This document shows, in pieces, positions 4,938 to 39,851 of a stretch of 64,000 bases of DNA (positions are counted from its first letter, which is position 1; each line of letters starts with the position of its first letter). The translations under genes and the position numbers were made by a program. The notes under the pieces were generated by a model, which did no database searches, was not told the DNA's origin, and saw only the letters and a list, made by a program, of their open reading frames with translations. This stretch comes from Nitrosopumilus sp. Its GTDB lineage: Archaea; Thermoproteota; Nitrososphaeria; Nitrososphaerales; Nitrosopumilaceae. Location: positions 64,001 through 128,000 of the forward strand of contig OZ241981.1 of the NCBI GenBank assembly GCA_965204345.1, in the 5' to 3' direction.

Positions 4938-5867
4938 TTACTTGCTCCCAATTTGTACAAATGATCCTGCTGAAACCGTCAGGCCTGCACATTTTTCAGG
5001 CTGAATAATCCTTGCAAGAATCTCTATTCCTTCTACGGTTCTGATGCCAGGCTTGCTAAAAAATGAGTCTGCATCCACTGCAAAAATCTTGTTATTTTTC
5101 ACAGCTCTTAGTGTTCTCCATGCCTTGTTATCTCTTAAAATTACGTCATATTCTGAAATTGTCCGCTTTGTGTCAAAACCGCATGGCATCAAAACTATGA
5201 TATCTGGATCTGACCTGATAATCTCATCTGTCGCCAGTCTTCTTGAATGCTCCCCTGCTTTGCTAATCATGTTTATTCCTCCTGCAATTTCAATCATTTC
5301 TGGAACCCAATGCCCTGCAGTAAAAAATGGCTCAATCCATTCGATTGCCAATACCTTGGGTTTGTTATTGCTGATAATTTTTCCAATGTCTGCAACTCTT
5401 TTTTCAAGAGAATCTGCTATCTGTCTAGCTCTTTTGCTGCATTCTAATATCTTGCCCAGTATTGTTATTGATTCTATGATCTCCTTGATACTGTGGGGAT
5501 CCATGGAGTGCAGAATCGGCTTTGTCCCAAGGATCTTTACTGCCTTATTCACTTGACTTGTATACGCGGCACAAACCTCGCAGGTACCCTGGGATATTAT
5601 CATGTCCGGATTTGCATTTTTCAAATTTTCTTCATTTAAAACAAAAATGTCTTTGCCCTCGCTTTGCAGCTTGCAAGTTGCTGCATCTATTTCCTTGCTG
5701 GTTAGTTCCTTGGAATTAATCACCGTATCTATGACTCTTGGTTTTGAGCATGCATCCTGCGGATATCTGCATTCGTGTGTTACTCCCTTAAGCTTGTCCT
5801 GTCTCCCTAATTCGTATACTAGTTCGGTTCCGCTAGGCACAAATGAGACGATTCGACTTACTGTCAT
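4938..5867 (-). CDS. Cobalamin/Fe-siderophore-type substrate-binding protein (BtuF-like)
   Basis: RIVSFVPSGTE, GVTHEC, CEVCA, AGHWVPEMIEIAGG, DPDIIVLMPCGF. Confidence 0.85.
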   Translation of the reverse strand: MTVSRIVSFVPSGTELVYELGRQDKLKGVTHECRYPQDACSKPRVIDTVINSKELTSKEIDAATCKLQSEGKDIFVLNEENLKNANPDMIISQGTCEVCAAYTSQVNKAVKILGTKPILHSMDPHSIKEIIESITILGKILECSKRARQIADSLEKRVADIGKIISNNKPKVLAIEWIEPFFTAGHWVPEMIEIAGGINMISKAGEHSRRLATDEIIRSDPDIIVLMPCGFDTKRTISEYDVILRDNKAWRTLRAVKNNKIFAVDADSFFSKPGIRTVEGIEILARIIQPEKCAGLTVSAGSFVQIGSK

Positions 5868-5965
5868 GGTTTTGACTAGATGATATTTTACTTAAACGCC
5901 CTGTTTGCTGGCGATCAATTTTTGTCATTAGGCAAGTTAATAGGCATTTTTTAGGTACAAAAACC

Positions 5966-7123
5966 ATGATTTCAGACTCTGAAAATATTCGTAGAGCCAT
6001 CCTGTCTAGATGGCACGAATCTCTTTTAAGGCATGGCAATCTGTTCTCTTCTGATTTTGTGAGCGGTGCTAGTCCTCCGTCTGTATTTGTTGGATCATAC
6101 AACTACCCCAAAGTCCTCGTTGGTCCTATGGTGCCCCCAATTCATGGGGATACTAGTCTGTTAGATAGCCCTGAGCGATGGACAGGAAAGTCTTTAGAAG
6201 ACATTGTAAATTTTAGGCTCAATTTGGTCAGGGGCACACAAAAAATTCCAATAGGACAGACTGACGGGCGATACGTTGAAAATCTCCAAGAAGTTACAAT
6301 GTCTTCAAGGCCTATTGATTCTGATCTAGTTTTTCAGAGTTCTACTGCCCCTAGTGTTTCACTTGACGGTGAGAGTGCCCCTTTTGGTCCTATTGGCCAA
6401 ATAAAATCTGCAAAATTCTCTGCAAATGCTCCTGTAAAATCTATAGAAAAAACATACTATGACAAGGATCTAAAAGCTCAAGATGCTGTTTTAAATTTAT
6501 ATAATTCCGGAGTAGAAATTTCAAAAATCCAAAAATGCTTCAGTATTGGAATGCTCGGATGCAAAAGGAAGCTTGTTCCTACTAAATGGAGTATTACTGC
6601 AACTGATGATATTATTTGCAAATCGCTTACCGAGGACGTGTTAAACTACGGCCTGATTGACTCGCACAGGGTCTTTTCGTATGAGCATTTGGGGAATATC
6701 TTTTGCGTGGTATTGTTTCCACACCGATGGGTCTATGAAATGATTGAGGCCTGGTATTCTAACGGTGTCTTGGGTTTTGGCTCTGACTGTGAGGATGCCC
6801 GCGGAATTGATCATCCTCCCACTATTGCCGGTGCATATTTTGCTGCAAAACTAGGTGTTTTAGAATACCTTGTCAAAAATAAAGTTCAAGCAGGAGCTGT
6901 AATTTTACGAGAAATCCGTCCCGAGTATGCCATCCCTGTCGGTGTGTGGCAAGTGAGAGAGGGCGTCAGGGAGGCAATGAATAAAAAGCATCTCTTTGCC
7001 GATGATTTTGAGCACGCACTAACTTTGGCCTCAAATAAAACGAGCATCAGTAAATCTGAGTGGCTCATGCATGGAAATGTTGTCGAACTGACCAGACAGA
7101 AAGCTATTTCTGATTTTTTTTAA
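5966..7123 (+). CDS. nreA: Nre-family DNA repair protein
   Basis: SPPSVFVGSYNYPKV, LVPTKWSITATDD, GAYFAAKL, PVGVWQVRE, C-terminal PIP box QKAISDFF. Confidence 0.9.
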   Translation: MISDSENIRRAILSRWHESLLRHGNLFSSDFVSGASPPSVFVGSYNYPKVLVGPMVPPIHGDTSLLDSPERWTGKSLEDIVNFRLNLVRGTQKIPIGQTDGRYVENLQEVTMSSRPIDSDLVFQSSTAPSVSLDGESAPFGPIGQIKSAKFSANAPVKSIEKTYYDKDLKAQDAVLNLYNSGVEISKIQKCFSIGMLGCKRKLVPTKWSITATDDIICKSLTEDVLNYGLIDSHRVFSYEHLGNIFCVVLFPHRWVYEMIEAWYSNGVLGFGSDCEDARGIDHPPTIAGAYFAAKLGVLEYLVKNKVQAGAVILREIRPEYAIPVGVWQVREGVREAMNKKHLFADDFEHALTLASNKTSISKSEWLMHGNVVELTRQKAISDFF

Positions 7124-7193
7124 AATCTGCTGATTTAATTTTAAATATCATAATTTTGCATAAGTATTTTTTTGGGGGTTATTAGTAAAATAA

Positions 7194-7740
7194 TGAACTA
7201 TCTACCTTTCCTAACAATTCAAAAGATCATCAAACATTTCAGAAAAAGCTGCAGACAGAGGCAGTAAATACGCAGAAAAAAACTCTTAATCAATAATAAA
7301 GAACTTTGATAAACTCTGTAAGGAAAAATATGACAAACAGGTGGTGAGACAATTAAAAGCGATTCGTGATGAATATTTTACTAAAACTGGAAGAAGAAAT
7401 ATGACAAGCAGGAGATCAGACCAATAGCAGAATATCAAAAAATAGATCTAGGTATTGTTTACAAGTTACTCCAAGAGTGGATCAACTGGAACAGCAAGAA
7501 TATGCTTCTAAATGATATCCCAGTTTTTTCATGTATTAAAAAAATATCTCAGATATCACAACATAAAGATCACAAAAGAGGATATGGAAAATTCTCCGGA
7601 TTTTCCATACATGATCAAAGAGGAAAAACACCCACTGACAAAAGAGGAGCTGCAAGATATTGAGTCTGAGCAACAGGAAAAATTATCTCAAAATTATAGG
7701 ACAGTTATCAAGTGGATTAAGATTGATAGGACTTGACAAG
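7194..7740 (+). pseudogene. Decayed N-terminal part of a tyrosine recombinase/integrase
   Basis: Pieces across frames read KNFDKLCKEKYD...YKLLQEWINWN...QFFHVLKKYLRYHNIKITKEDMEN...EEKHPLTKEELQDI, resembling the core-binding domain and LTxEE linker of thaumarchaeal integrases. Stops and frameshifts are present and the catalytic domain is missing. Confidence 0.6.
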
Positions 7741-7836
7741 TACATTCTAATAAATATCAAAAAGTGAATTTTTCAGAATGAAAATATTATTACATGGTAT
7801 TTAGAAAAATTATCCATAAATTAGAGATTTCAATAT

Positions 7837-8097
7837 GTAAGAATATCTCCTAAAATAAGAAATATCATTACACGGTATGATTTAGAAAAGAGAATAAATA
7901 TTCAAAGATTAGCGTGAAAAATACCAAAATCTACGTATAAGCCTGAACAATTTCTATGTCTGATCTTTAGAATTTAGGATAGATTGATTGGATTATCTTT
8001 GCATCGGAGAAGGGTATATTATCGAGAAGAAAACCATCTCTGAATTAAATCAAAAATGTTTGAAGTTCAAAGATGGATAAAATATACACTTGTCTAA
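7837..8097 (+). pseudogene. Pseudogene of the TBP paralog (C-terminal repeat only)
   Basis: Manual translation VRISPKIRNIITRYDLEKRINIQRLA*KIPKSTYKPEQFLCLIFRI*D...IFAS..KG...KTISELNQ aligns with the C-terminal half of 14536..15075 (IKITPKVQNIVARFDLKQ...LPKSMYEPEQFPGLIYRIQD...LFASGKG...KTIAEVN). Two stops plus frameshifts. Confidence 0.8.
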
Positions 8098-8112
8098 TCT
8101 TTTATTAGAGTT

Positions 8113-9474
8113 TTGTTGGTGGAAATAATGGTGACACAGATAGAATTTGAGAAAGAAAATCTTCCAGAAGGATGGATTGTAACAGCAATTAGCAACATAA
8201 CAGAAACTGTACAAAAAATTAATCCTAAAGATACCCCCAATAAAATATTCCATTATTGTGACATAAATTCGATCGATAATAGTAGATTACAAATTACCAA
8301 TCCAAAACAAATTTTGGGTAAGAATGCACCATCTAGAGCAAGACAACTAATTAAGAAAAATGACATATTATTTTCCACTGTTCGAACATATTTGAAAAAT
8401 ATTGCGATGGTTCCAGAACATTTAAATGATAATTTGGCATCAACAGGATTTTGTGTTATACGAGCAGGAAAAATTAATGAAAAATTTATGTTTAATTATA
8501 TACAATCATCTCAGTTCATTGATCTAATAAACAGTGCACAAAGAGGAATAAGTTATCCAGCTGTAAGAAATAATGATGTACATAATAGCATTATTCCTCT
8601 CCCCCCACTCAACGAACAAAAACGCATCGTTACAAAAATCGAATCAATCTTCACACAGATTGATGCATGTAAAGAAGAATTAGATGTATTTGCATCGCAG
8701 ACCAAATCAGTTTCTTATAGTTTACAAACATTGAAGGGAAATATATTAAAACAAATGTTTGAAGAATTAAATAAAAAACACAGAGCAGATATGTTAGAGA
8801 AGGTGTGTATTGATATCCAATCGGGATTTGCTCAAGGGGAAAAAGATGTAAAAAATGGAATAATTCATCTTAGAATGAATAATATAGATACAAACTTCAC
8901 AATGAATTTTGAACTACTTCGGACTATCAATGCTACAAATAAACAAAAAGAAAAATATCTTTTACAAAAAAATGACATACTTTTTGTGAATACGAATAGT
9001 GTAGAATTAGTAGGCAAATCTGCTATTTTTACATTTGATAAAGACTGTCTTTATAGTAATCATTTAACACGTCTGCGCACTAATATTTCTATACTAGATC
9101 CAAAATTTCTCTTGTATTATTTTTATTATAAATGGATAAAACATGATTTTCGAAGTATATGTAATAAATGGATAAATCAAGTGGCAATTAATACTACAAA
9201 AATTAAACAACTACAAATTCCTCTTCCTCCCCTCAACGAACAAAAACGCATTGTTACAAAAATCGAATCAATCTTTGACAGGATTGATGTAAAACAAGAG
9301 GAAATGAAAAAGATTGAGATGCAGTTAAAATCAATTCCCGACAGCATTAATACATTGAAAGGCAGCATATTAAAAAAAGCATTTGAAGGTAAGTTGGTTC
9401 CACAGAATCCAAATGACGAACACGCATCTGTACTTCTTGAGAGGATAAAATCCCAAAAATCTAGGAAAATATAA
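8113..9474 (+). CDS. hsdS: Type I RM specificity subunit HsdS, copy 1 (TRD-A + TRD-B, complete C-terminus)
   Basis: LPEGW, two IPLPPLNEQKRIV conserved regions, C-terminal AFEGKLVPQNPNDEHASVLLERIK typical of the EcoAI/EcoEI (type IB) group. Probable start is ATG 8128. Confidence 0.95.
   Translation: MLVEIMVTQIEFEKENLPEGWIVTAISNITETVQKINPKDTPNKIFHYCDINSIDNSRLQITNPKQILGKNAPSRARQLIKKNDILFSTVRTYLKNIAMVPEHLNDNLASTGFCVIRAGKINEKFMFNYIQSSQFIDLINSAQRGISYPAVRNNDVHNSIIPLPPLNEQKRIVTKIESIFTQIDACKEELDVFASQTKSVSYSLQTLKGNILKQMFEELNKKHRADMLEKVCIDIQSGFAQGEKDVKNGIIHLRMNNIDTNFTMNFELLRTINATNKQKEKYLLQKNDILFVNTNSVELVGKSAIFTFDKDCLYSNHLTRLRTNISILDPKFLLYYFYYKWIKHDFRSICNKWINQVAINTTKIKQLQIPLPPLNEQKRIVTKIESIFDRIDVKQEEMKKIEMQLKSIPDSINTLKGSILKKAFEGKLVPQNPNDEHASVLLERIKSQKSRKI
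8146..8178 (+). repeat. hsdS repeat R1 (33 bp); inverted copies at 15618-15650 and 16305-16337
   Basis: TTTGAGAAAGAAAATCTTCCAGAAGGATGGATT; 31/33 identical to the reverse complement of 15618-15650. Confidence 0.9.
8593..8666 (+). repeat. hsdS inverted repeat R2, left copy (74 bp)
   Basis: 73/74 identical to the reverse complement of 15835-15908 (single C/T difference at 8610). Confidence 0.95.
9233..9293 (+). repeat. hsdS inverted repeat R3, left copy (61 bp)
   Basis: 55/61 identical to the reverse complement of 15160-15220. Confidence 0.9.
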
Positions 9475-9499
9475 ACACATGACATAAATTTACAAATAG

Positions 9500-10189
9500 T
9501 TGTTTATTCAAATTTCCAAGATAAAGAAAAAATATAATATCTTTACTAATAACATGCAAATGATTATGAGATCTAATTTACAAAATGATACTGGCCTAAA
9601 AATTCACAATAAAATAATTTTACAATTTTTTAAAGATTGTAAAGATAAAAAATTGTTATCCAATACAATAAAACCACAACAGAATAATACTATATGTACT
9701 CGTTGGGATATATCTAAGTTAACCGATCAAGCAATTCAAAAAATACGTAAACATAGGATTGATTTAAAAAACAATGAAAAAACACAATTTCTAAGTGATA
9801 AAGAACATGATGCCTTACAGTTTTCTCGCTGTGTGTCTTTTTTGAGAGACACTACCGAAGATTTGAAAATTTCATTACAGTTAATTATTGATCCATCACA
9901 AGTAAAATCATGTACTGAGCTTGGAAAATACCTTAACGAAATTTATAATAAACTAGGTTATAATGACGACAAGAAATCCAAAATGAATCGTGCCTTTCAA
10001 AAAGATCTCAGAAATGCATTAAGTCATAACAATTATTCGTATAAATGTGATAAAAACCATGTAAAGAGCATAACATGGCAAGATCATAATCAAAAACACA
10101 CATGGAATCAAGTGGAATTGTCCAAATCCATCTCAAAGATAATTTGCATAAATGGACTAATTGGCAAAATAATTAATGGGAAATTCTGA
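9500..10189 (+). CDS. Hypothetical protein with RxxxxH (HEPN-like) motif
   Basis: AT-rich 229-aa ORF directly downstream of hsdS copy 1, with DLRNALSHNNY in a helical context. The true start may be ATG 9554 or 9560. Confidence 0.55.
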   Translation: MFIQISKIKKKYNIFTNNMQMIMRSNLQNDTGLKIHNKIILQFFKDCKDKKLLSNTIKPQQNNTICTRWDISKLTDQAIQKIRKHRIDLKNNEKTQFLSDKEHDALQFSRCVSFLRDTTEDLKISLQLIIDPSQVKSCTELGKYLNEIYNKLGYNDDKKSKMNRAFQKDLRNALSHNNYSYKCDKNHVKSITWQDHNQKHTWNQVELSKSISKIICINGLIGKIINGKF

Positions 10190-10197
10190 TACCGTGC

Positions 10198-11697
10198 TTA
10201 TTTTGGGATTTCCTTGTTGATAATGTCTTTTATATCTTCAAATGACTTGATCATGCCCTTTCTTAGATCAATAAACTGATCAATTAATTTGTCTGGTGGC
10301 AGAACAATTGTTTCAATTACATCTGTTGGATTGTTGGAGTCAAGATTGAAATCCTGAATGTCTTTAACATTAATTTTCCATGCATTTTCATTTGATGTCT
10401 TCTTTTTGAACCATTTTTCAATCTCTGCAAAGTCGTCATATGCGATTGGGTTTGACTTTGTATATTTGGGATTCTTTGCACGAGTTACTCCACGCAATCG
10501 TTCGGCTACCTTCATTTGATAATACCAAATTTCTTTGGTTGGTCCTGTCTTGTCAAAAAACAGTATGTTTGTTGCAATTGATGTGTAAGGCTCAAAAACA
10601 GTTTTGGGCAGCCTAATTATCGTATGCAAGTTAAATTCTTCAAGAAGTTTTTTCTTGATTTTAGAGGCAACGCCTCCTGCAAACATTGGACCATCTGGAA
10701 GAATAATTCCACACCGTCCTCCTTCTTTTAGAGAATACATGATGTATAACAAGAATGAAAGAGCAGTATCTGATGTCTGCATTCCTACAGGTAGATTGGA
10801 TGAAATTCCTTCCTCCTCTTCCCCCCCAAATGGTGGATTCGTTATGATAAGATCATACTGGTCATTTTGAGAAATTTCTCTCAGAGGATTAACAAGTGTG
10901 TTTGCTCTGATAATGTTTGGTTTGTCTACCTCATGAAGAAGCATATTCATCATTCCTAAAAGATAAGGCATGGATTTTTTCTCGATCCCAAATAATGTGT
11001 TTGTAGTTAGTTTCTTCAAATCTCCTTTTGTTTTTTGTTCATGTCTTAGAAACTCCAAAGATTCTACCAAAAATCCACCTGTACCACATGCAGGATCTAA
11101 TATCTTTTCAGATTTTTTTAGACTAGGGTTGATTTGATTTACAATAAACCGAATTACAGGTCTTGGTGTGTAAAATTCTCCACTATTTCCTGCGGCATCT
11201 CTCATCTCAATTAACATATCTTCATAGAGTTTTGCCATGGTGTGAATGTCATCAGTATTGATAAAATTTACCTTATCTATCAGATTAATAATCTGTCTGA
11301 GGAGGTATCCACTGAGTATTCTATTGTTTAATTCTTTAAAGATCGTTGCAATGACATCTCTTTGTTCAAAACCTTTATCACCTGTCAGTTTTGAGAGTTT
11401 TGGAAATAATTTATTATTTACAAATGAGATTAGATCAGGACCTGTTAAAACCTTGACAGTACGTCCTTTCTTATCTTTTTCTGCTGCCCAATCCTGCCAT
11501 CGTAATCCCTTTGGTATTGCCTCCACATATTTTCTATTTAGAGCAGCCCTCTCTCTTTCAAAATCATCAAAACTCTTTAGGAATAAAATCCATGCAATTT
11601 GAGGAATTCTATCAACATCAGTATTAAGACCTGCATCTTTTCTCATTAGATCTCTTGCAGATTTTATTATAGAACGAAGTGAATGTGCATCCATCAT
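10198..11697 (-). CDS. hsdM: Type I RM methyltransferase subunit HsdM (N6-adenine)
   Basis: GEFYTPR, DPACGTGGF (motif I), NPPF (motif IV), N-terminal RDLMRKDAG. Confidence 0.97.
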   Translation of the reverse strand: MMDAHSLRSIIKSARDLMRKDAGLNTDVDRIPQIAWILFLKSFDDFERERAALNRKYVEAIPKGLRWQDWAAEKDKKGRTVKVLTGPDLISFVNNKLFPKLSKLTGDKGFEQRDVIATIFKELNNRILSGYLLRQIINLIDKVNFINTDDIHTMAKLYEDMLIEMRDAAGNSGEFYTPRPVIRFIVNQINPSLKKSEKILDPACGTGGFLVESLEFLRHEQKTKGDLKKLTTNTLFGIEKKSMPYLLGMMNMLLHEVDKPNIIRANTLVNPLREISQNDQYDLIITNPPFGGEEEEGISSNLPVGMQTSDTALSFLLYIMYSLKEGGRCGIILPDGPMFAGGVASKIKKKLLEEFNLHTIIRLPKTVFEPYTSIATNILFFDKTGPTKEIWYYQMKVAERLRGVTRAKNPKYTKSNPIAYDDFAEIEKWFKKKTSNENAWKINVKDIQDFNLDSNNPTDVIETIVLPPDKLIDQFIDLRKGMIKSFEDIKDIINKEIPK

Positions 11698-11728
11698 TAC
11701 TCATAATCGTATCGACATTAAATATGAT

Positions 11729-14095
11729 TCAGTTGTCTCTATACAATTCCTTTGTTAATTGTATTATTGCACCATCATATTCATCACCATCTTTGAATCT
11801 GTGATTGATGATTTCAGTAGGGCCTCCAAACTGTTTGAATTTTGGCAATTTCAAAACTCCTCTTTCCTCCAACTCTTGATACCCCTCCTCTGCATAATGA
11901 TCCAATATCACCTCTAGAACTTCTCGTGCTTTGTTCGGATATTTCTCCAAAAATGCCTTTTTATGTACAGAATTGATCCTCTCTAATCGAGTTTTTGCAT
12001 CTGCATTAAATGCAAAATGTAAGAGCATATCAAATGAATCAATCTTAGCCATCTGAGTGATTTCTTTAAGATGTGAAAAACTAACGCCTCTCTCTTCTAG
12101 TTGCTTTACAAAATGCTGTCTTTTTTCAGGATCTGTCCATATCTTGTATAGTTTTGTTTGTTCATCATTTACTAGACGGCGAACAGTCTCTCCAGTATAA
12201 TCTTGATAAGAAATAAGCCTATTCTGATTAATTGATTGATCAAAAATTAAAACCGATTCACCACGAATTTCTACTTTTTTTCCATTTATGTGATATGTTT
12301 TAATTGTTTGTGATTCTTGTTCTTCTTCTGCTTTATCTTCTAGTGCCTCTTTTACTGCATTTCTTCTTTTCTCTTCTGCACGTTCTAAGATTTTTTTTTC
12401 TTTTTCTTTAGTAATTATTTCTTGTTCTTCTTCAGTTTCTGCAATTGCAGGACCATCCCATTCTACATCCTCAAACAATCTACTAGTTTTTCTATAATCT
12501 ATAATTGAAAACCACATCTTATCTTTTGGTTCATAGACACGGGTACCTCTACCAATAATTTGTTTGAATTCAGTCATGGAATTAATGCTCTTATCTAATG
12601 CAATTATCTTGCATGTTGGAACATCTACGCCTGTTGACATTAATCTAGATGTAACTGCAACAATTGGAAAATCTTTGTTTGGTTCCTGGAATTGATCCAA
12701 GTATTCTCGTCCTATTTCACCTTCAGCAGAAACTATTCTGACACAATAGTCATGTCTTTCTCCAGAATAATTTCGAATTAGTTTAGTCATTGCTTGTGCA
12801 TGTTCTGAGTTTTGACAAAATAAAATCGTCTTGTTATATTTTTGATTATTTTTCTCCAAAAAATCTACAAGGTGTTTTGCTACGGTCTTTCGTCTCTCAT
12901 CAACAATTAAAATTCTGTCAAAATCTTTATAGCTGTATGTTTTGTCATCAAGTATCTTTCCATCTAAATCCGTTTCCCCTGGTTTTGGAATATATCCCGT
13001 CAGATCAATTTCAAGATTAACCCTGTGAATCATGTATGGTGCTAAAAAGCCATCTTCAATTCCTTGTTTTAGACTGTATGTGTATATAGGAATACCAAAA
13101 TAATCATACGTATCTTTATTTTCGTCCTTTCGTTTAGGAGTTGCAGTCATGCCTATGTGAACAGCATCTTTGAAATAATCCAATATCTTTCTCCAGCTCC
13201 CATCCTCATTGGAGCTTCCTCTGTGACATTCATCAATTATTATGTAATCAAAGAAATCTTTTGAATATTGCTTGTACAGCTCACAATCCTCTTTATCTAC
13301 ATCAAGTGCTTGATATAGTGCAAAATACATACTATATGCAGTCTGTGCAACTTTTTGGATCTTGTGTCTTGCTTCACCAAAACCTGCAAATGCATTATTT
13401 TTTGCTTGATCTAACAAAACGGTTCGATCTGCTAAAAATAAAATTTTTGGATGTGGGGTATCTTTTTTCCAGAGTTTTTGTGCAATTTGATAAGATATGA
13501 ATGTCTTGCCAGTTCCAGTCGCAAGATTTAAGAGTACGCGCTTCTTTCCTGCAAGAATTGCTGTTAATGTGGAATGGATTGCAATTTCTTGATAGTACCG
13601 AGGTTCCATGGGAGATCCTCCTGGATCTTTTGAACTTCGATCCAACGACTCTAATATAACATTCATTTGTTTTTTATTAAAATTTATACCTTCTTGGAAT
13701 CTCTCTAGTAATTCTTGAGGTGTTGGAAATTTATCTATTGTTTGTTGTTGTTTTTTGGAAAAGTCATATTCTTCAATTTTCTGTCCATTTGTTGCAAAAG
13801 CAAATTTTAACTCCATTTTTTCAGCATATTTTATTGCCTGACTCATTCCTTCATCATGTGGTTTGTCCCATGCTTTAGCTTCTATTACTGCAATTTTGTA
13901 ATCATCACCCAACTTGAGAATGTAATCAGCTATGATTGGTTGTGCCCTTTTTCCAGTACGGCCATCAGGAGTAATTCTGCCTTCATTAATTTTATATTCC
14001 CTAATGATTTTATCTAATTCCCAACCAGATTCTGCTAGCTTGGGATCAATATGTCTCATACAAGTGGTTGATTCGGACATCTTTTCTTCAGTCAA
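11729..14095 (-). CDS. hsdR: Type I RM restriction subunit HsdR (EcoAI/EcoEI-like)
   Basis: ADY...VIEAK nuclease motif, ATGTGKT, IIIDECHRG, GMTATP, TGVDVP, QIIGRGTR and an EcoEI_R_C-like C-terminus. Confidence 0.97.
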   Translation of the reverse strand: MTEEKMSESTTCMRHIDPKLAESGWELDKIIREYKINEGRITPDGRTGKRAQPIIADYILKLGDDYKIAVIEAKAWDKPHDEGMSQAIKYAEKMELKFAFATNGQKIEEYDFSKKQQQTIDKFPTPQELLERFQEGINFNKKQMNVILESLDRSSKDPGGSPMEPRYYQEIAIHSTLTAILAGKKRVLLNLATGTGKTFISYQIAQKLWKKDTPHPKILFLADRTVLLDQAKNNAFAGFGEARHKIQKVAQTAYSMYFALYQALDVDKEDCELYKQYSKDFFDYIIIDECHRGSSNEDGSWRKILDYFKDAVHIGMTATPKRKDENKDTYDYFGIPIYTYSLKQGIEDGFLAPYMIHRVNLEIDLTGYIPKPGETDLDGKILDDKTYSYKDFDRILIVDERRKTVAKHLVDFLEKNNQKYNKTILFCQNSEHAQAMTKLIRNYSGERHDYCVRIVSAEGEIGREYLDQFQEPNKDFPIVAVTSRLMSTGVDVPTCKIIALDKSINSMTEFKQIIGRGTRVYEPKDKMWFSIIDYRKTSRLFEDVEWDGPAIAETEEEQEIITKEKEKKILERAEEKRRNAVKEALEDKAEEEQESQTIKTYHINGKKVEIRGESVLIFDQSINQNRLISYQDYTGETVRRLVNDEQTKLYKIWTDPEKRQHFVKQLEERGVSFSHLKEITQMAKIDSFDMLLHFAFNADAKTRLERINSVHKKAFLEKYPNKAREVLEVILDHYAEEGYQELEERGVLKLPKFKQFGGPTEIINHRFKDGDEYDGAIIQLTKELYRDN

Positions 14096-14535
14096 TTTTC
14101 AACATAAAATTTTCAACATATTTCTAGATAAATGTTCTTTTTGAAAAATCAAATATTTTAGAATAAAATCAAGATTTGAATCTGCGAAATATTTTTGAGA
14201 ACTGATCTATTATACAGCTAACCATAGTGTGTTTATATCAGATCAAGAATAGGTGTGACTCTGAAAATATCTGGAATTTCTTGTATGGTGTAACAAGCAT
14301 TAGCTTGAACTCCTCTGTACAGACTGATTTTCACCTCCAATCATAACATTAACAAGTATTTACTTGTTGGACAGTAACGCAAAATATGCAAAATGAGAGA
14401 TGTTCATTAGATCTACAATTGTGGTACTTCGCACTATTGGATCTTTGGTTTTTATTTAGATTAGGACATATCTAGACAACTGATTACAAAATAGATTCAA
14501 TCTTAACAATTATTAGAAAAAATAAGAAAATTTCA

Positions 14536-15075
14536 CTAGATACATCTTACCTTGATATCAAATAATGCAGAATTTACTTCTGCAATGGTTTTTGCCCCTG
14601 CAATAACTCCTTTTCCTGATGCAAACAAAAGTGCTACACAGCTATCTTGAATTCTATATATCAAACCGGGAAATTGTTCTGGTTCATACATACTTTTTGG
14701 TAATATTCTTACAAGTTTTTCTATTGGCAAATTTTGTTTTAAATCGAATCGCGCTACAATATTTTGCACTTTGGGAGTAATTTTAATGAGTTTTGCAAGA
14801 TTATAATTATCCAGTATTTTTATTGCTTTTTTTAATTCTTTTTTAGATTGTGCAGGATTCTTTGTTCCAACTGAAATAAGTTTTCCATTTCCAAATACAG
14901 TAACTCGTCCAACCATCAAATCATCTTTTACATACCTACACCTGTATAAAGCAATATTTGAGCTGAGAAAGGGATATTTGTTAAAAGAAGCAATATCTAT
15001 TTTCTGTTTAAGATCTGCTGTAGTTACAGTGTTTTGAATTTTAATTCCTGCTACAAGCTTTGACTCTTTTTGCAT
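14536..15075 (-). CDS. Divergent TATA-box-binding protein paralog
   Basis: Two-repeat TBP architecture: IQNTVTTADL...VFGNGKLISVGTK and VQNIVARFDL...YEPEQFPGLIYRI...LLFASGKGVIAGAK. Repeat 1 lacks the YxPExFPG motif. Confidence 0.9.
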   Translation of the reverse strand: MQKESKLVAGIKIQNTVTTADLKQKIDIASFNKYPFLSSNIALYRCRYVKDDLMVGRVTVFGNGKLISVGTKNPAQSKKELKKAIKILDNYNLAKLIKITPKVQNIVARFDLKQNLPIEKLVRILPKSMYEPEQFPGLIYRIQDSCVALLFASGKGVIAGAKTIAEVNSALFDIKVRCI

Positions 15076-15086
15076 TAAAATTCATG

Positions 15087-16346
15087 TTACCCTATCGCAT
15101 TAAAAATGAATGTATTATTCACATATGTGATTTTTTGTTTGATTAAATATAATATCTGCTTTACATCAATCTTGTCAAAGATTGATTCAATTTTGGATAC
15201 GATGCGTTTTTGTTCGTTGAAAGGCGATAGTAAGACAGGAATAGTTTTCATTGCTGTCTGATTAAGTTTCAATCGTGTTGTCCCAGTTACATATCCATGA
15301 TAATTCACCTGATTCAAATAGTGGCAAAGAAATTTGTTGATCAATAATCCAGATATTCCTTTAAGAACATGAGCATGATTATTAACCCAACTTTTTCCAT
15401 TAACAATGTAGGCTTTGTTTTTGAAAGTTTCAAAAAATGGTGCACCGTCTTCTCCCAACAAAACCAATTCTTCATCAAAAATATAATCATCAATCAAGCC
15501 AACTTGACCAGTAGCACCATAATATGGAATATTTCCAGTACGATTTTTCCGTTCACTAGAATTTACTGGTATTCTTTTTCTGTCCCAAATTTCTACAATA
15601 TCTTCCAAATTGATCTTAATCCAACCTTCTGGAAGATTCTCTTTCTCAAAAATCAACTCTTTCTCAGAACTCTTATGCAATCTCCTCAAAAGCATCTCTG
15701 CTGGCTCATCAGCTGGATCCTGTGAAACCAGCTTGCCCTCAAAGGCCTGCTTGAGCACGCTACTTCTTAGCATCCCCAGGCTGCCAGAAGATGACTTTAT
15801 TTGAGATGCAAGTGCCTCCAGCTTGTTTTGTGCCGCATCAATCTGTGTGAAGATTGATTCGATTTTTGTAACGATGCGTTTTTGTTCGTTAAGTGGGGGG
15901 AGAGGAATTGAATATATTGCCAGCTTTTCATATTTTATTCGAGGGTGTTGAACTCCTGTCATATTTCTATTAGCAAAACGTACAACCTGACTGGTAGATA
16001 AAAATAACATAATGTATTTGCTAACCAGATTGTCATTTTGTTGGAAAACCAATATGTCTGTGGAACACACTCCGTTAAAATCTGGAATTGCTACTTTGTT
16101 TAGATATGGACGTAATTTTCCATAAAGAATATCTCCCTTACTAAAGACATTTTTTGTGCTCTTTGTATCTTTTGAATTGGCCTTTCCAATAATTTTTCTT
16201 GAATTACTTTCTATGTGTTCTAATCCCACAAAAGGTTGATTTTTCTCATTCTTTGGATCAAATTTTCTTTTTGATTGATTCAGAACATTCAGTAAATCTG
16301 TTCTAATCCACCCTTCTGGAAGATGCTCTTTCTCAAAAATCAACAT
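15087..16346 (-). CDS. hsdS: Type I RM specificity subunit HsdS, copy 2 (TRD-C + TRD-D, C-terminal conserved region missing)
   Basis: LPEGW twice, IPLPPLNEQKRIV, central AFEGKLVSQDPADEPA. After IDVKQ the sequence becomes unrelated (ILYLIKQKITYVNNTFIFNAIG*). Confidence 0.9.
   Translation of the reverse strand: MLIFEKEHLPEGWIRTDLLNVLNQSKRKFDPKNEKNQPFVGLEHIESNSRKIIGKANSKDTKSTKNVFSKGDILYGKLRPYLNKVAIPDFNGVCSTDILVFQQNDNLVSKYIMLFLSTSQVVRFANRNMTGVQHPRIKYEKLAIYSIPLPPLNEQKRIVTKIESIFTQIDAAQNKLEALASQIKSSSGSLGMLRSSVLKQAFEGKLVSQDPADEPAEMLLRRLHKSSEKELIFEKENLPEGWIKINLEDIVEIWDRKRIPVNSSERKNRTGNIPYYGATGQVGLIDDYIFDEELVLLGEDGAPFFETFKNKAYIVNGKSWVNNHAHVLKGISGLLINKFLCHYLNQVNYHGYVTGTTRLKLNQTAMKTIPVLLSPFNEQKRIVSKIESIFDKIDVKQILYLIKQKITYVNNTFIFNAIG
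15160..15220 (-). repeat. hsdS inverted repeat R3, right copy
   Basis: Reverse complement matches 9233-9293 at 55/61; similarity ends where hsdS copy 2 loses homology. Confidence 0.9.
15618..15657 (-). repeat. hsdS repeat R1, internal copy (40-bp direct repeat with 16305-16344)
   Basis: 38/40 identical to 16305-16344; encodes LIFEKENLPEGWI. Confidence 0.9.
15835..15908 (-). repeat. hsdS inverted repeat R2, right copy
   Basis: 73/74 match to 8593-8666. Confidence 0.95.
16305..16344 (-). repeat. hsdS repeat R1, 5' copy
   Basis: Encodes LIFEKEHLPEGWI at the start of hsdS copy 2. Confidence 0.9.
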
Positions 16347-16559
16347 ATCAATTCTTTGTTTCTTTAATTTAAATTAGTCAAGTAACAGTTAAAGTGAAAA
16401 ATAGAATTTTATAAATCATAACAAATGAATCTCCTGCAATTGTTGCAAAGCTTTGAAATTATTGTACTATACTCCAAGGAGATTGTCATTGTGACATAAA
16501 CGTACTTTGTCTTTTCTTCAGATATTATAGTTAATGGTTTTATCTAGTTTATTAGCCAT

Positions 16560-17486
16560 TTAGATCTCTATTTTATACATGACTTTTTTGAATTCCCTAA
16601 AGAGATCTTCTAGGGTAGGCGTCAGATATACATGATCAAGACCATTTTTGTGACCCATTAGCTTTTCTGCAATGTTATAGTTTACTGAATTGTCCAGTTT
16701 TAAGACAGTATTGTATCGCTTTCTAAAACCATGATCTGCTTGGACGTCAAAACGATTTTTTGATTTTATTCTTTTCAGGTTACTTTTCTGAATTATTCTA
16801 TAAATTGCAGAACGAACGCCGTTCCAACCTAATTGTTTTGGAAGGAATTTGGTTGTTGCAAATATGGGAGTATCTTTGTAAAATATTTCTCCTTGATTTT
16901 TACGATATTCATGATAAGCTTTCAATGCCTTGGTTGCTTGTGGTGTAAGAAATGCCCAATACTCCTCAACATGTCCCGCATAAAGCAATATGCCAGTGCA
17001 ACCATATGACATCTTCATCATGTGTTTTATGGATAAATCGTGATCAAAAACTCCCACCCTTGCTCCTGTTGAACTAAAAAAGTACACCAAAGCTTTGTTC
17101 CTAAGGCTTGTTGTGTTGGATAATAATTTCTTGATTTCTTTTGTCGTATATGCCCTCAAGCTTTGCGTTTTTTGCTTTTGTGGGAACATTTTGTTTATGA
17201 TGTTCCAGTTAAGATTAATCTCATTCATTATACAGAAATGCTTTATGCCCTGAAACTTTGATGGGATAGAATTGGGGTTTGTAGTACGCTTTAGCTCGAT
17301 TAAATAATTCTCAAGATTATACTGCAAGTCTGTATTTGGAATACTTGTTAGTTGATTTTGGGATGTAATGTTTGCAAAATTTAAAAAAGAGTTAAGATGT
17401 GATGTATAATTCTTTTTTGTGTATTTTGATTTTATCGACTCTTCAAATAATAATGAACATCGATGTTTAGTTATTAAATTACTCAT
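16560..17486 (-). CDS. Tyrosine recombinase/integrase (Xer-like), intact
   Basis: Catalytic residues present: STGARVG (R), HGFRKR (HxxR), LMGH (H) and HVY (Y). Confidence 0.93.
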   Translation of the reverse strand: MSNLITKHRCSLLFEESIKSKYTKKNYTSHLNSFLNFANITSQNQLTSIPNTDLQYNLENYLIELKRTTNPNSIPSKFQGIKHFCIMNEINLNWNIINKMFPQKQKTQSLRAYTTKEIKKLLSNTTSLRNKALVYFFSSTGARVGVFDHDLSIKHMMKMSYGCTGILLYAGHVEEYWAFLTPQATKALKAYHEYRKNQGEIFYKDTPIFATTKFLPKQLGWNGVRSAIYRIIQKSNLKRIKSKNRFDVQADHGFRKRYNTVLKLDNSVNYNIAEKLMGHKNGLDHVYLTPTLEDLFREFKKVMYKIEI

Positions 17487-38805: not shown

Positions 38806-38942
38806 GTATGATTGAGCCTTTACTAACATACTCACACTTCTTATAGATGAGTATTGCTCTTAAATCATGCCTGAATATTATGAGAGTGATTGTTCTTCAC
38901 TGACTAATTTGATAAGGAAAATTATCTGGTGTGGAAATTAAA

Positions 38943-39851
38943 ATGGATAACACTAATTCTGTCTGTGCCCGCTGTGGAAAAAACTCCCTGCTTACTGATG
39001 AGGTGACAGGAGAACAATTCTGTGGAAAATGCGGCTATGTAATCACTGAAAAATCCCAGGAATCCGGTCCTGAATGGAGGTCTTTTCAAAAAGACGGCGG
39101 TGCAGATCCTGCAAGAACCGGCGCCCCCTCATCACTAATGATTCATGATATGGGGCTATCTACTGTCATTAATCCCCTAAACAAGGATGCCTCAGGAAAG
39201 CCTCTCTCCACATCCATGAAAAGCACCATTGAGCGGTTAAGAACTTGGGATAGCCGAAGCCAGGTTCATGCCCCAGTTGACAGAAACCTGCGTCAAGCGC
39301 TAAGCGATTTGAACAAGCTAAAGGACAAGGTTTCAATTCCTGCAAACGTGCTGGAAAAAGCCGCATACATTTATCGCAAGGCATTGGAGAAAAAGTTGGT
39401 TCGTGGAAGATCTATCTCTGCCATGATTGCCGCATCCTTGTATGCTGCATGCAGAGACACTGAAACCCCCAGAACCCTAAAGGATGTTGCAGATGCTGCA
39501 AACGTAAAGCGAAAGGACATTGCAAGATGCTATAGGCTGCTTCATCACGAACTGGAGCTAAAAATGCCTGTTGTTGATTCTATACAGTGTATTGCAAGGA
39601 TCTCAAGCAAGCTTGAGATATCTGAGAAGACAAAACGGTACGCAGTCAAGGTACTAAAGGAGGCCCAAGAACGCAAAGAGTCTGCCGGAAAAGACCCTAT
39701 GGGACTGGCAGCTACTGCACTTTATCTCTCATGTGTTAAAAACGGCGTATCCATTACCCAGAGGGACCTTGCAGAAGCTGCCGGAGTAACTGAAGTCACC
39801 ATCAGAAATCGCTACAAGGGATTAAAGGCCGAACAGTCACAAAACCCCTGA
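38943..39851 (+). CDS. tfb: Transcription initiation factor IIB (TFB paralog)
   Basis: Zn ribbon CARCG...CGKCG, GPEWRSF, cyclin repeats (RGRS, GKDPMGLAA, VTEVTIRNRY). Start is ATG 38943 (GTG 38931 possible). Confidence 0.97.
   Translation: MDNTNSVCARCGKNSLLTDEVTGEQFCGKCGYVITEKSQESGPEWRSFQKDGGADPARTGAPSSLMIHDMGLSTVINPLNKDASGKPLSTSMKSTIERLRTWDSRSQVHAPVDRNLRQALSDLNKLKDKVSIPANVLEKAAYIYRKALEKKLVRGRSISAMIAASLYAACRDTETPRTLKDVADAANVKRKDIARCYRLLHHELELKMPVVDSIQCIARISSKLEISEKTKRYAVKVLKEAQERKESAGKDPMGLAATALYLSCVKNGVSITQRDLAEAAGVTEVTIRNRYKGLKAEQSQNP

Follow-up and report, generated by a model that had tools for sequence, protein, structure and literature searches.

Small DNA-binding regulators with a helix-turn-helix or WYL fold, namely the C proteins of type II restriction-modification systems and the BrxR/WYL-type regulators, are encoded within bacterial restriction and BREX loci, and phase-variable type I loci, in which inverted hsdS copies accompany a tyrosine recombinase, are also known in bacteria. 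To our knowledge, almost nothing is known about the regulation of archaeal restriction-modification or defence loci, and archaea lack the bacterial controller proteins and the restriction alleviation based on ClpXP. Haloarchaea and Nitrosopumilus carry several paralogs of the TATA-binding protein (TBP) and of transcription factor B (TFB), and those TBPs keep both repeats canonical; we know of no report that ties multiple archaeal TBP/TFB paralogs to defence loci. In the present study, a stretch of 64,000 nucleotides from Nitrosopumilus sp. (contig OZ241981.1 of assembly GCA_965204345.1, positions 64,001 to 128,000; hereafter, the window) was analysed, in which an intact gene for a two-repeat TBP paralog lies on the minus strand at 14536..15075, inside a type I restriction-modification island. 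The asymmetric TBP lineage that includes this gene is herein labelled TBPa. The results suggest that TBPa is a working member, with a function predicted from its sequence, of a separate TBP lineage that travels with the restriction-modification and defence islands of Nitrososphaerota.

TBPa resembles the archaeal housekeeping TBP in its two tandem repeats, saddle fold, YEPEQFPG and LFASGK motifs, S1 Asn residues, aromatic kink residues and C-terminal stirrup, the modelled TFB interface, but differs in the stirrup of repeat 1 (LSSNLxLYRCGYVKD), in a Tyr that replaces the first Phe, in its patchy distribution and in its location in restriction islands. As in the multiple TBP/TFB sets, several TBPs occur in one genome (six TBP and six TFB genes here) and promoter choice is presumed; however, the TBPa lineage is asymmetric and divergent and tracks restriction systems. 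Like a C protein or BrxR, TBPa is encoded by a small, optional regulator gene embedded in a restriction locus and presumably governs when or how strongly the restriction genes are expressed, but its fold is the TBP saddle rather than helix-turn-helix or WYL, its proposed action is at the basal initiation complex, and no operator motif was found for it in promoter searches. The island shares with phase-variable type I loci two inverted hsdS genes, shared repeats, a neighbouring recombinase and alternative joints, and is distinguished from them by its archaeal host and by an inverting segment that holds hsdM, hsdR and the TBP paralog. TBP genes also occur in the bacterial TOTE and TALON conflict systems, as described in a preprint on YprA helicases (PMC12458937). 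In these systems, as here, a TBP-fold protein is encoded in a defence or conflict operon; the bacterial systems differ in their further components, a TPR-cold-shock-domain fusion plus either an effector or a YprA helicase, whereas the partners of TBPa are restriction-modification genes. No TPR-cold-shock-domain fusion was found by Pfam among the neighbours of TBPa, and a plain TPR protein occurs in loci L137 and L129 only.

A full-text literature search yielded no paper linking TBP to restriction-modification. By term search, two archaeal defence surveys (PMC12988326, PMC3632139) mention neither TBP nor TATA, and a study on TBP evolution (PMC7221094) names neither an archaeal TBP or paralog nor Thaumarchaeota, and has no occurrence of the words restriction or horizontal. 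A TBP orthogroup unique to one Nitrosopumilus species has been described among sponge-associated Thaumarchaeota, with environmental sensing as the guessed role (PMC6697440). As far as these sources extend, TBPa is a true TBP paralog of an undescribed lineage with an undescribed genomic partnership, and the TBP fold in defence has a bacterial precedent (PMC12458937).

Fold, lineage and conserved residues of TBPa

The 179-residue open reading frame (ORF) matches the Pfam TBP family PF00352 in two stretches (E 1.9e-31; 108.2 bits against a cut-off of 22.9), and the closest solved structures are archaeal TBPs (1mp9 at the top, 4.8e-30, with 1ais and 1d3u among the others), which confirms the claim that an intact TBP-fold gene is present. 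In the AlphaFold2 model, built on an 87-row alignment (pLDDT 93.7, pTM 0.85), the succession of strand, helix, four strands and helix is seen twice and the S1-H1-S2-S5-H2 saddle order is present in each half, and Foldseek placed the model onto solved TBPs with TM scores of 0.82-0.85 and a root mean square deviation of about 2 Å. The modelled protein has the full TBP saddle fold. Repeat 1 (approximately residues 11-90), which contains FLSSNIALYRCRYVKDDLMVGRVTVFGNGKLISVG, has a rebuilt stirrup, and repeat 2 (approximately residues 100-178), which contains SMYEPEQFPGLIYRIQDSCVALLFASGKGVIAG, is canonical. The asymmetry described in the original prediction can be read in the translation, since repeat 2 holds YEPEQFPG and LFASGK (SMYEPEQFPGLIYR...LLFASGKG), and repeat 1 has lost YxPExFPG but keeps VFGNGK (LSSNIALYRCRYVKD...TVFGNGK). 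TBPa scored under the cut-off of each of the ten NCBIfam TBP models (best 105.5 bits against 181, with cut-offs of 181-347) and is 33-35% identical to the canonical TBPs of the same genome. The identity of a housekeeping archaeal TBP was rejected for TBPa on the basis of these cut-offs and of its patchy occurrence across genomes.

The genome holds six TBP genes, namely three canonical genes with Y[HE]PEQFPG in both repeats and three TBPa genes (in the window, on contig C3 of the same assembly and at C1:228651-229211), together with two decayed fragments, one of which lies at 7849-7986 of the window. The 26 asymmetric rows of a 63-row tree formed a single clade (Shimodaira-Hasegawa-like approximate likelihood ratio test, SH-aLRT, 100; 97 in a second tree) with subclades of 17 and 9 rows, divided by a long branch from the 37 canonical rows. 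In the second tree, whose 58 rows included three additional asymmetric rows and one additional canonical row from other families and omitted nine near-identical canonical rows, all 29 canonical rows lay across a branch with support of 100, and L176 and L177 joined the family clade at 93. The comparison with housekeeping TBPs places the window gene in a distinct clade across that branch, although the depth of the split is unsure because these are quick trees with long branches.

The ratios of nonsynonymous to synonymous substitution rates (dN/dS, Nei-Gojobori) were 0.097 between the window and C3 genes and 0.078, 0.057, 0.048 and 0.285 in four other close pairs, and the constraint was found in repeat 1 and repeat 2 alike; in other words, the TBPa lineage is under purifying selection. 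A search with repeat 1 as the query against 400 other Nitrosopumilaceae genomes gave matches at 29 places in 20 genomes (E <= 2.8e-7), which were examined as 26 loci. TBPa is patchy, not universal, in this family (20/400 genomes at E < 1e-8 with the repeat 1 query), in contrast to the canonical TBPs, which are present besides. At the scale of metagenomes, at least 150 protein clusters, of 159 candidates, matched the same query, and the top 120 full-length matches were 64-100% identical to TBPa. Among the viral contigs searched, 105 pattern matches included no TBPa relative; a search for fusions among longer proteins gave two matches at 33-34% identity and no clade member, and the search of the ESM Atlas with TBPa returned generic TBP clusters only.

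Conservation was computed over 87 TBPa-clade sequences. The invariant residues include N15, Y44, C46, Y48, K50, F61, Y130, P132, F135 and F151, and E131, E133 and G137 of the C-terminal stirrup are kept in at least 90% of the sequences. In the alignment to the canonical TBPs of the genome, Y44 aligns with the PEQF Phe of repeat 1 and F61 with that of LVF, and Y44, F61, F135 and F151 are what we take, from the yeast and human TBP structures, to be the four DNA-kinking positions. Three of these positions are occupied by invariant Phe (F61, F135 and F151) and the fourth by the invariant Tyr44 in place of the first Phe of repeat 1, the kinking itself being predicted. Because an aromatic residue is invariant at all four positions, repeat 1, with the stirrup consensus hLSSNLxLYrCGYVKD, is, as judged from its residues, rebuilt and not decayed. 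Thus, the loss of the repeat 1 motif holds for YxPExFPG as such, but not for the aromatic residue at the first kinking position, which stays as Tyr44. The S1 Asn residues are conserved. The canonical VCTG reads ISVG and VIAG in TBPa, without the central Thr residues.

The C-terminal stirrup contacts TFB in solved archaeal complexes. A model of TBPa in complex with a TFB core (residues 105-306 of the product of 38931-39851, a TFB gene of the window) scored 0.63, and the best of three controls scored 0.01; a score of 0.63 is attained by 58 of 80 solved complexes and by 2 of 110 mismatched pairs. The runs agreed in at least 97% of contacts, the partner pLDDT was at least 84, and the interface comprised TBPa residues 115-152. 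Since like complexes have been solved (1ais, 1d3u), the model may reflect these structures and represents a likeness rather than proof. Elsewhere in the genome, a canonical TBP gene directly follows a TFB gene at C1:1748557-1749703, forming a TFB-TBP pair.

Association of TBPa with restriction-modification loci

In this genome, type I genes occur at three places only, with TBPa at each, and the three canonical TBP genes lie elsewhere, away from restriction genes. The contents of the loci in other genomes were scored by local BLAST, Pfam and PADLOC. Among the 26 family loci, type I (hsd) genes were found in 13 (L121, L122, L123, L124, L125, L130, L132, L133, L134, L136, L140, L143 and L145) and other restriction-modification genes in three, comprising a type IIG methylase and HKD-Snf2 helicase adjoining TBPa in L127, a type ISP enzyme in L128, where TBPa is a pseudogene, and a type II methylase 1 nt from TBPa in L131. 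Four further loci (L126, L137, L142 and L095) contain a recombinase homolog alone, and such a homolog (60-70% identity) adjoins TBPa in 10 of the 26. The gene order in L143 is that of an operon, hsdM-hsdS-TBPa-hsdR, and the ends of TBPa and hsdS overlap in L136 and L122. When the same queries were applied to canonical-TBP loci, 1 of 79 matched, marginally; these control loci (mean 15 kb, mostly from other archaeal groups) were obtained in an 80-locus search for relatives, of which the 80th, L011, is a member of the clade (71% identity). At the level of genomes, HsdS (PF01420) was present in 16 of the 20 genomes with TBPa versus 81 of the 380 others, and the genome tallies for HsdS and for recombinase homologs include genomes flagged as unpublished, none of which has a TBPa match.

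A search of 400 genomes across the phylum identified eight genomes in other families (E <= 1e-6). One of the resulting loci, L183, was rejected as a canonical TBP, and restriction-type genes were observed in five of the remaining seven. The genes hsdR-hsdS-hsdM-TBPa follow one another on one strand with overlapping ends in L177; TBPa lies beside the same type IIG and HKD-Snf2 pair in L176 as in L127; single-repeat TBP genes in L181 (9826-10194) and L182 (9883-10260) are oriented towards a type IIG restriction-methylase gene, after which come BrxL and a PLD protein; and a large methylase lies 5.3 kb from TBPa in L179. The TBPa lineage usually occurs within a type I, type IIG, type ISP or BREX-like locus or immediately beside it. 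The clade shows enrichment at restriction-modification loci rather than random placement (16/26 in the family, 3/3 in this genome and 5/7 in other families, versus 1/79 for canonical TBPs), and relaxed selection was not seen (dN/dS 0.05-0.29). Because random contexts and relaxed selection are both contradicted, the central idea of the original prediction stands, and its interpretation as a whole is partly supported.

Several other features of these loci were observed. The third TBPa locus of the genome, L010 (C1:222000-236000), contains hsdS as two half-size genes (7494-8075 and 8150-8758), an hsdR of 1019 residues and a 448-residue recombinase of another type, with hsdM and more hsdS halves beyond, at C1:235498-238278. 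The pair of a type IIG/DrmMI-like methylase and an HKD(PLD)-Snf2 helicase, a PADLOC candidate (C3a139), spans L127 10843-18203 and L176 11064-17357 in two families. The TBPs of L181 and L182, from two genomes of another family, are 122-125 residues long and of the repeat 1 type with RYPKYRCAYLK, and a separate half-TBP gene is unusual. Among the neighbours of TBPa genes that lack an adjacent restriction gene (L138 744-1166; L144 8660-9568), and flanking the operon of L177 (8679-9614), proteins with an EVE domain, DUF5655 or DUF4268 are encoded, families that occur in modified-DNA or restriction contexts. No PADLOC model matches TBPa or the tyrosine recombinase.

The window island and its second allele

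The minus strand of the island carries, in order, the recombinase, hsdS2, TBPa, hsdR and hsdM, and the plus strand carries hsdS1 and an ORF of 229 residues, so that the TBP gene lies between the second hsdS copy and hsdR on one strand, as claimed. Inverted repeats of 57-123 nt with 82-89% identity are shared by hsdS1 and hsdS2. One arm (I3) in hsdS1, at 9233..9296, is 64 nt long and 89% complementary to its partner in hsdS2 at 15157..15220, the end of which is 82 nt from the TBPa start codon, and it coincides with an opposite-strand joint site. Another arm (I1), in the central conserved region of hsdS1 at 8593..8715, is 123 nt long and pairs with 15786-15908 at 82%. Opposite-strand joints between hsdS1 and hsdS2 were observed in DNA contigs of three public runs from three separate studies, linking 9216 with 16307 in X1 (possibly the source sample), 8593 with 15616 in X5 (side 40), and 9280 with 15172 in X6 (side 255, 16 shared letters); these contigs show the presence of the joints and not their rate. 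The claim that the TBP gene is inside an invertible segment is thus supported by the inverted repeats and by the joints in X1, X5 and X6, and the features of a phase-variable type I locus, i.e. inverted hsdS copies with repeats, an adjoining recombinase and alternative joints, are all present. Since TBPa lies in the segment that inverts between the hsdS genes, each switch of the specificity gene moves TBPa as well. In addition, contigs of X5 and X6 skip 687 nt (window 15638-16326) between the direct repeats 15617-15657 and 16304-16344; this skip removes one target-recognition domain of hsdS2 and would leave other populations with an hsdS variant of half the size.

The whole island (window 5613-17486) has a second allele on contig C3 of the same assembly, which is 10.6 kb long (L009 1-10621). 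Its left flank is 99.5% identical to that of the window and the last 67 residues of the recombinase are 100% identical, and it carries hsdM and hsdR of another family, two hsdS copies with an inverted repeat of 750 nt (99.6%) and a TBPa protein 95% identical to that of the window. The C3-type contig had a depth of 14.7 in run X1, versus 86 for the window form. Because this allele differs in hsdM and hsdR and yet retains TBPa, TBPa was kept during the exchange of the enzyme genes.

The full-length specificity subunit is encoded by hsdS1 (8113..9474, plus strand, 453 residues; Pfam Methylase_S, E 5.8e-23, two stretches). The other copy, hsdS2 (15087..16346, minus strand; Methylase_S, E 6e-33, and comparison with the hsdS1 translation), ends 11 nt from TBPa, and its frame departs from the conserved distal region immediately past the IESIFDKID motif, where the repeat arm ends, and continues as an unrelated tail. 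Within this 3' tail, the TATA-like element ATTTTTAA (15100..15107, minus strand), a putative promoter element, lies 25-32 nt upstream of the TBPa ATG, and TTTAAA, TTTATA and TATATA peak genome-wide at -35 to -26 relative to start codons. We infer that hsdS2 is presently a truncated copy and that a promoter belonging to TBPa itself lies just within the inverting segment, as the frame leaves the conserved region and the tail holds a TATA-like element at the genome-wide peak position. Upstream of TBPa genes in general, TTTAAAAC or CTTAAAAC is found at about 27-36 nt. The 440-nt spacer before hsdR was inspected and no element was recognised. In the RNA run X9 (share 0.06), five small contigs of depth 2-4 covered hsdM (11152-11414), hsdR (13204-14008) and the end of hsdS2 (15111-15215); TBPa was uncovered, which is uninformative either way, as such libraries can contain DNA.

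The remaining genes are hsdR (11729..14095, minus strand), a restriction/translocase subunit of 788 residues (Pfam ResIII, EcoEI_R_C, Helicase_C and HSDR_N_2); hsdM (10198..11697, minus strand), an N6-adenine methyltransferase of 499 residues (N6_Mtase, E 5.3e-63, and HsdM_N); and a tyrosine recombinase of 308 residues (16560..17486, minus strand; Phage_integrase, E 1.6e-5, and the XerA-like NCBIfam model, 2e-14, both below cut-off), which is the likely hsdS invertase. The 229-residue product of 9500..10189 (plus strand), between hsdS1 and hsdM, is known as an ORF only, gave no Pfam match over cut-off and none in PADLOC or NCBIfam, and occupies the position held by hsdM after hsdS in the C3 allele. 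Just upstream of hsdS1, a decayed C-terminal TBP repeat (7849..7986, plus strand; PF00352, E 1.5e-7) with one in-frame TGA and one in-frame TAG is 45% identical to TBPa residues 97-149, and looks like the relic of a second TBPa gene beside the other hsdS; an identical copy of this fragment is present on C3 at 8318-8455.

Possible roles of TBPa

Herein, we tentatively propose, as a reading that is plausible but somewhat short of probable, that TBPa is an island-borne initiation factor that recruits the host TFB and controls the linked restriction genes, with target, binding and expression being putative. This proposal is based on the residues kept at the DNA face and in the TFB stirrup, on purifying selection and on the recurrent position of the gene within restriction operons. 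TBPa would bind and bend AT-rich promoter DNA as TBP does, the C-terminal stirrup would recruit the host TFB, and the level or timing of linked restriction gene expression would thereby be set. A promoter or partner preference unlike that of the three housekeeping TBPs would most likely stem from the rebuilt N-terminal stirrup. In other words, TBPa might fill in archaea, with an unrelated fold, the role that controller proteins and BrxR-type regulators have in bacterial defence loci. Among the three mechanisms offered in the original prediction, promoter selectivity fits best, in view of the conserved YEPEQFPG and the TFB model (0.63 versus 0.01).

Several observations weigh against this proposal. 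Six of the 26 family loci (L129, L135, L138, L139, L141 and L144) contain neither a restriction nor a recombinase gene, the contig stopping beside the gene in L138, L139 and L141, and the same holds for two of the seven outside loci (L178 and L180). The association counts overstate the statistics, and none of them is a probability, because related genomes are not independent. TBPa precedes hsdR in the window, in C3 and in L143 but follows it in L121 and L177, and this variable order relative to hsdR, hsdM and hsdS fits poorly with one fixed target promoter. A search upstream of TBPa genes for a TBPa-specific promoter motif yielded none, only ordinary TATA boxes, since the position of TTTAAAAC and CTTAAAAC equals that of the genome-wide TATA element. 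None of the six TFB genes of the genome adjoins a TBPa gene. Codon 47 of the window TBPa (14935-14937) encodes Arg, whereas Gly is found in at least 90% of the 87 clade sequences, the C3 allele among them; this residue falls within the invariant YxCGYVK stretch. Moreover, close homologs of the window recombinase are common in the family, and among 20 further loci with such homologs (52-79% identity), taken from the best matches outside TBPa loci with G311:C157, G373:C80 and G322:C2 excluded, hsd genes were present in 12 and TBPa in none. One of the 20, L149, contains an hsdR and an hsdM of the window type (77% and 85%) and a truncated hsdS directly before hsdR, without a TBP. From these loci, it follows that TBPa is dispensable for the restriction enzyme and the recombinase alike.

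That restriction cassettes do without TBPa is in line with an alternative in which TBPa is an accessory general TBP with no special tie to restriction, an additional alternative TBP comparable to those of the haloarchaeal TBP/TFB sets, found in low-GC variable islands since new genes land there. The lineage is indeed patchy (20/400 family genomes), the GC content of the island is 0.32 versus 0.40 in each flank, the gene order is variable, and some TBPa loci adjoin housekeeping genes (L135, L144 and L178) or a mobile-element primase (L129); the species-specific TBP orthogroup of a sponge Nitrosopumilus, for which environmental sensing was proposed (PMC6697440), could be of the same kind. This alternative is nevertheless unlikely, as the association recurs in two deep subclades, in other families and with several restriction types, TBPa occurs in operons with overlapping ends, and all three type I loci of the genome carry it, versus the control of 1/79. 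All partners of TBPa are methylase-based systems, most of them translocating (type I, ISP, IIG with HKD-Snf2, and the BrxL locus), and DNA-mimic proteins block type I and BREX systems alike. TBPa might belong to the defence itself: acting as a guard, decoy or sponge, it would bind a viral factor (a TBP/TFB inhibitor or a DNA-mimic anti-restriction protein, for example) and thereby keep defence genes expressed or shield the ATP-dependent restriction enzymes. A new ligand is suggested by the rebuilt invariant surface of repeat 1 (Y44, C46, Y48 and K50), and TOTE and TALON provide a reported example of TBP genes in conflict systems (PMC12458937). However, the viral partner would be hypothetical, the TFB stirrup and DNA-face residues are kept although a mere decoy would not need them, no PADLOC model matches TBPa, and no relatives were found among the viral contigs searched, which makes a guard or sponge distinctly unlikely. 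A fuller form, in which TBPa is a working part of methylase-based, ATP-dependent archaeal defence whose stirrup senses or soaks up a viral factor and couples this event to the expression or activity of the restriction enzyme, seems highly unlikely; in that case, TBPa would parallel the TBPs of TOTE and TALON, but with an independent origin from a true archaeal TBP.

The other two mechanisms of the original prediction fared less well. Damping of transcription, either of the restriction subunit or across the AT-rich island, would result if TBPa competed with the housekeeping TBP or sequestered TFB, thereby acting as a negative regulator. TBPa retains the TFB interface that a TFB-sequestering decoy would require, the island is AT-rich, and the altered repeat 1 and the replaced central Thr may weaken the formation of a productive complex; but a decoy leaves the invariant DNA-face residues unexplained, the aromatic kink and S1 Asn residues being invariant as for a normal DNA complex, and the present data fit activation equally; negative regulation appears very improbable. 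TBP bends DNA sharply, and a DNA-bending accessory of the hsdS-inverting tyrosine recombinase, comparable to IHF or Fis in bacteria, would agree with the recombinase homolog adjoining 10 of 26 loci, with the distance of 82 nt between the window TBPa start and an inverted-repeat arm, and with the inversion joints in contigs. This role is weakened by the absence of TBPa from all 20 further recombinase loci, 12 of them with hsd genes, and by the TBPa loci without that recombinase or inverted hsdS (L127, L128, L130, L143, L176 and L181), and the conservation of the TFB stirrup would go unexplained; among the roles considered herein, it is the one to which we give the least credence.

If TBPa is an island-borne initiation factor as proposed, it would be the first case of a defence or mobile island with a dedicated basal initiation factor paralog, and would open a route to understanding how an incoming restriction cassette is safely switched on in a new host. 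It would also show possible uses of the free N-terminal stirrup of archaeal TBP and inform the partitioning of promoters by alternative TBP/TFB pairs in ammonia-oxidising archaea. TBPa is, moreover, a marker gene for defence islands in Nitrososphaerota.

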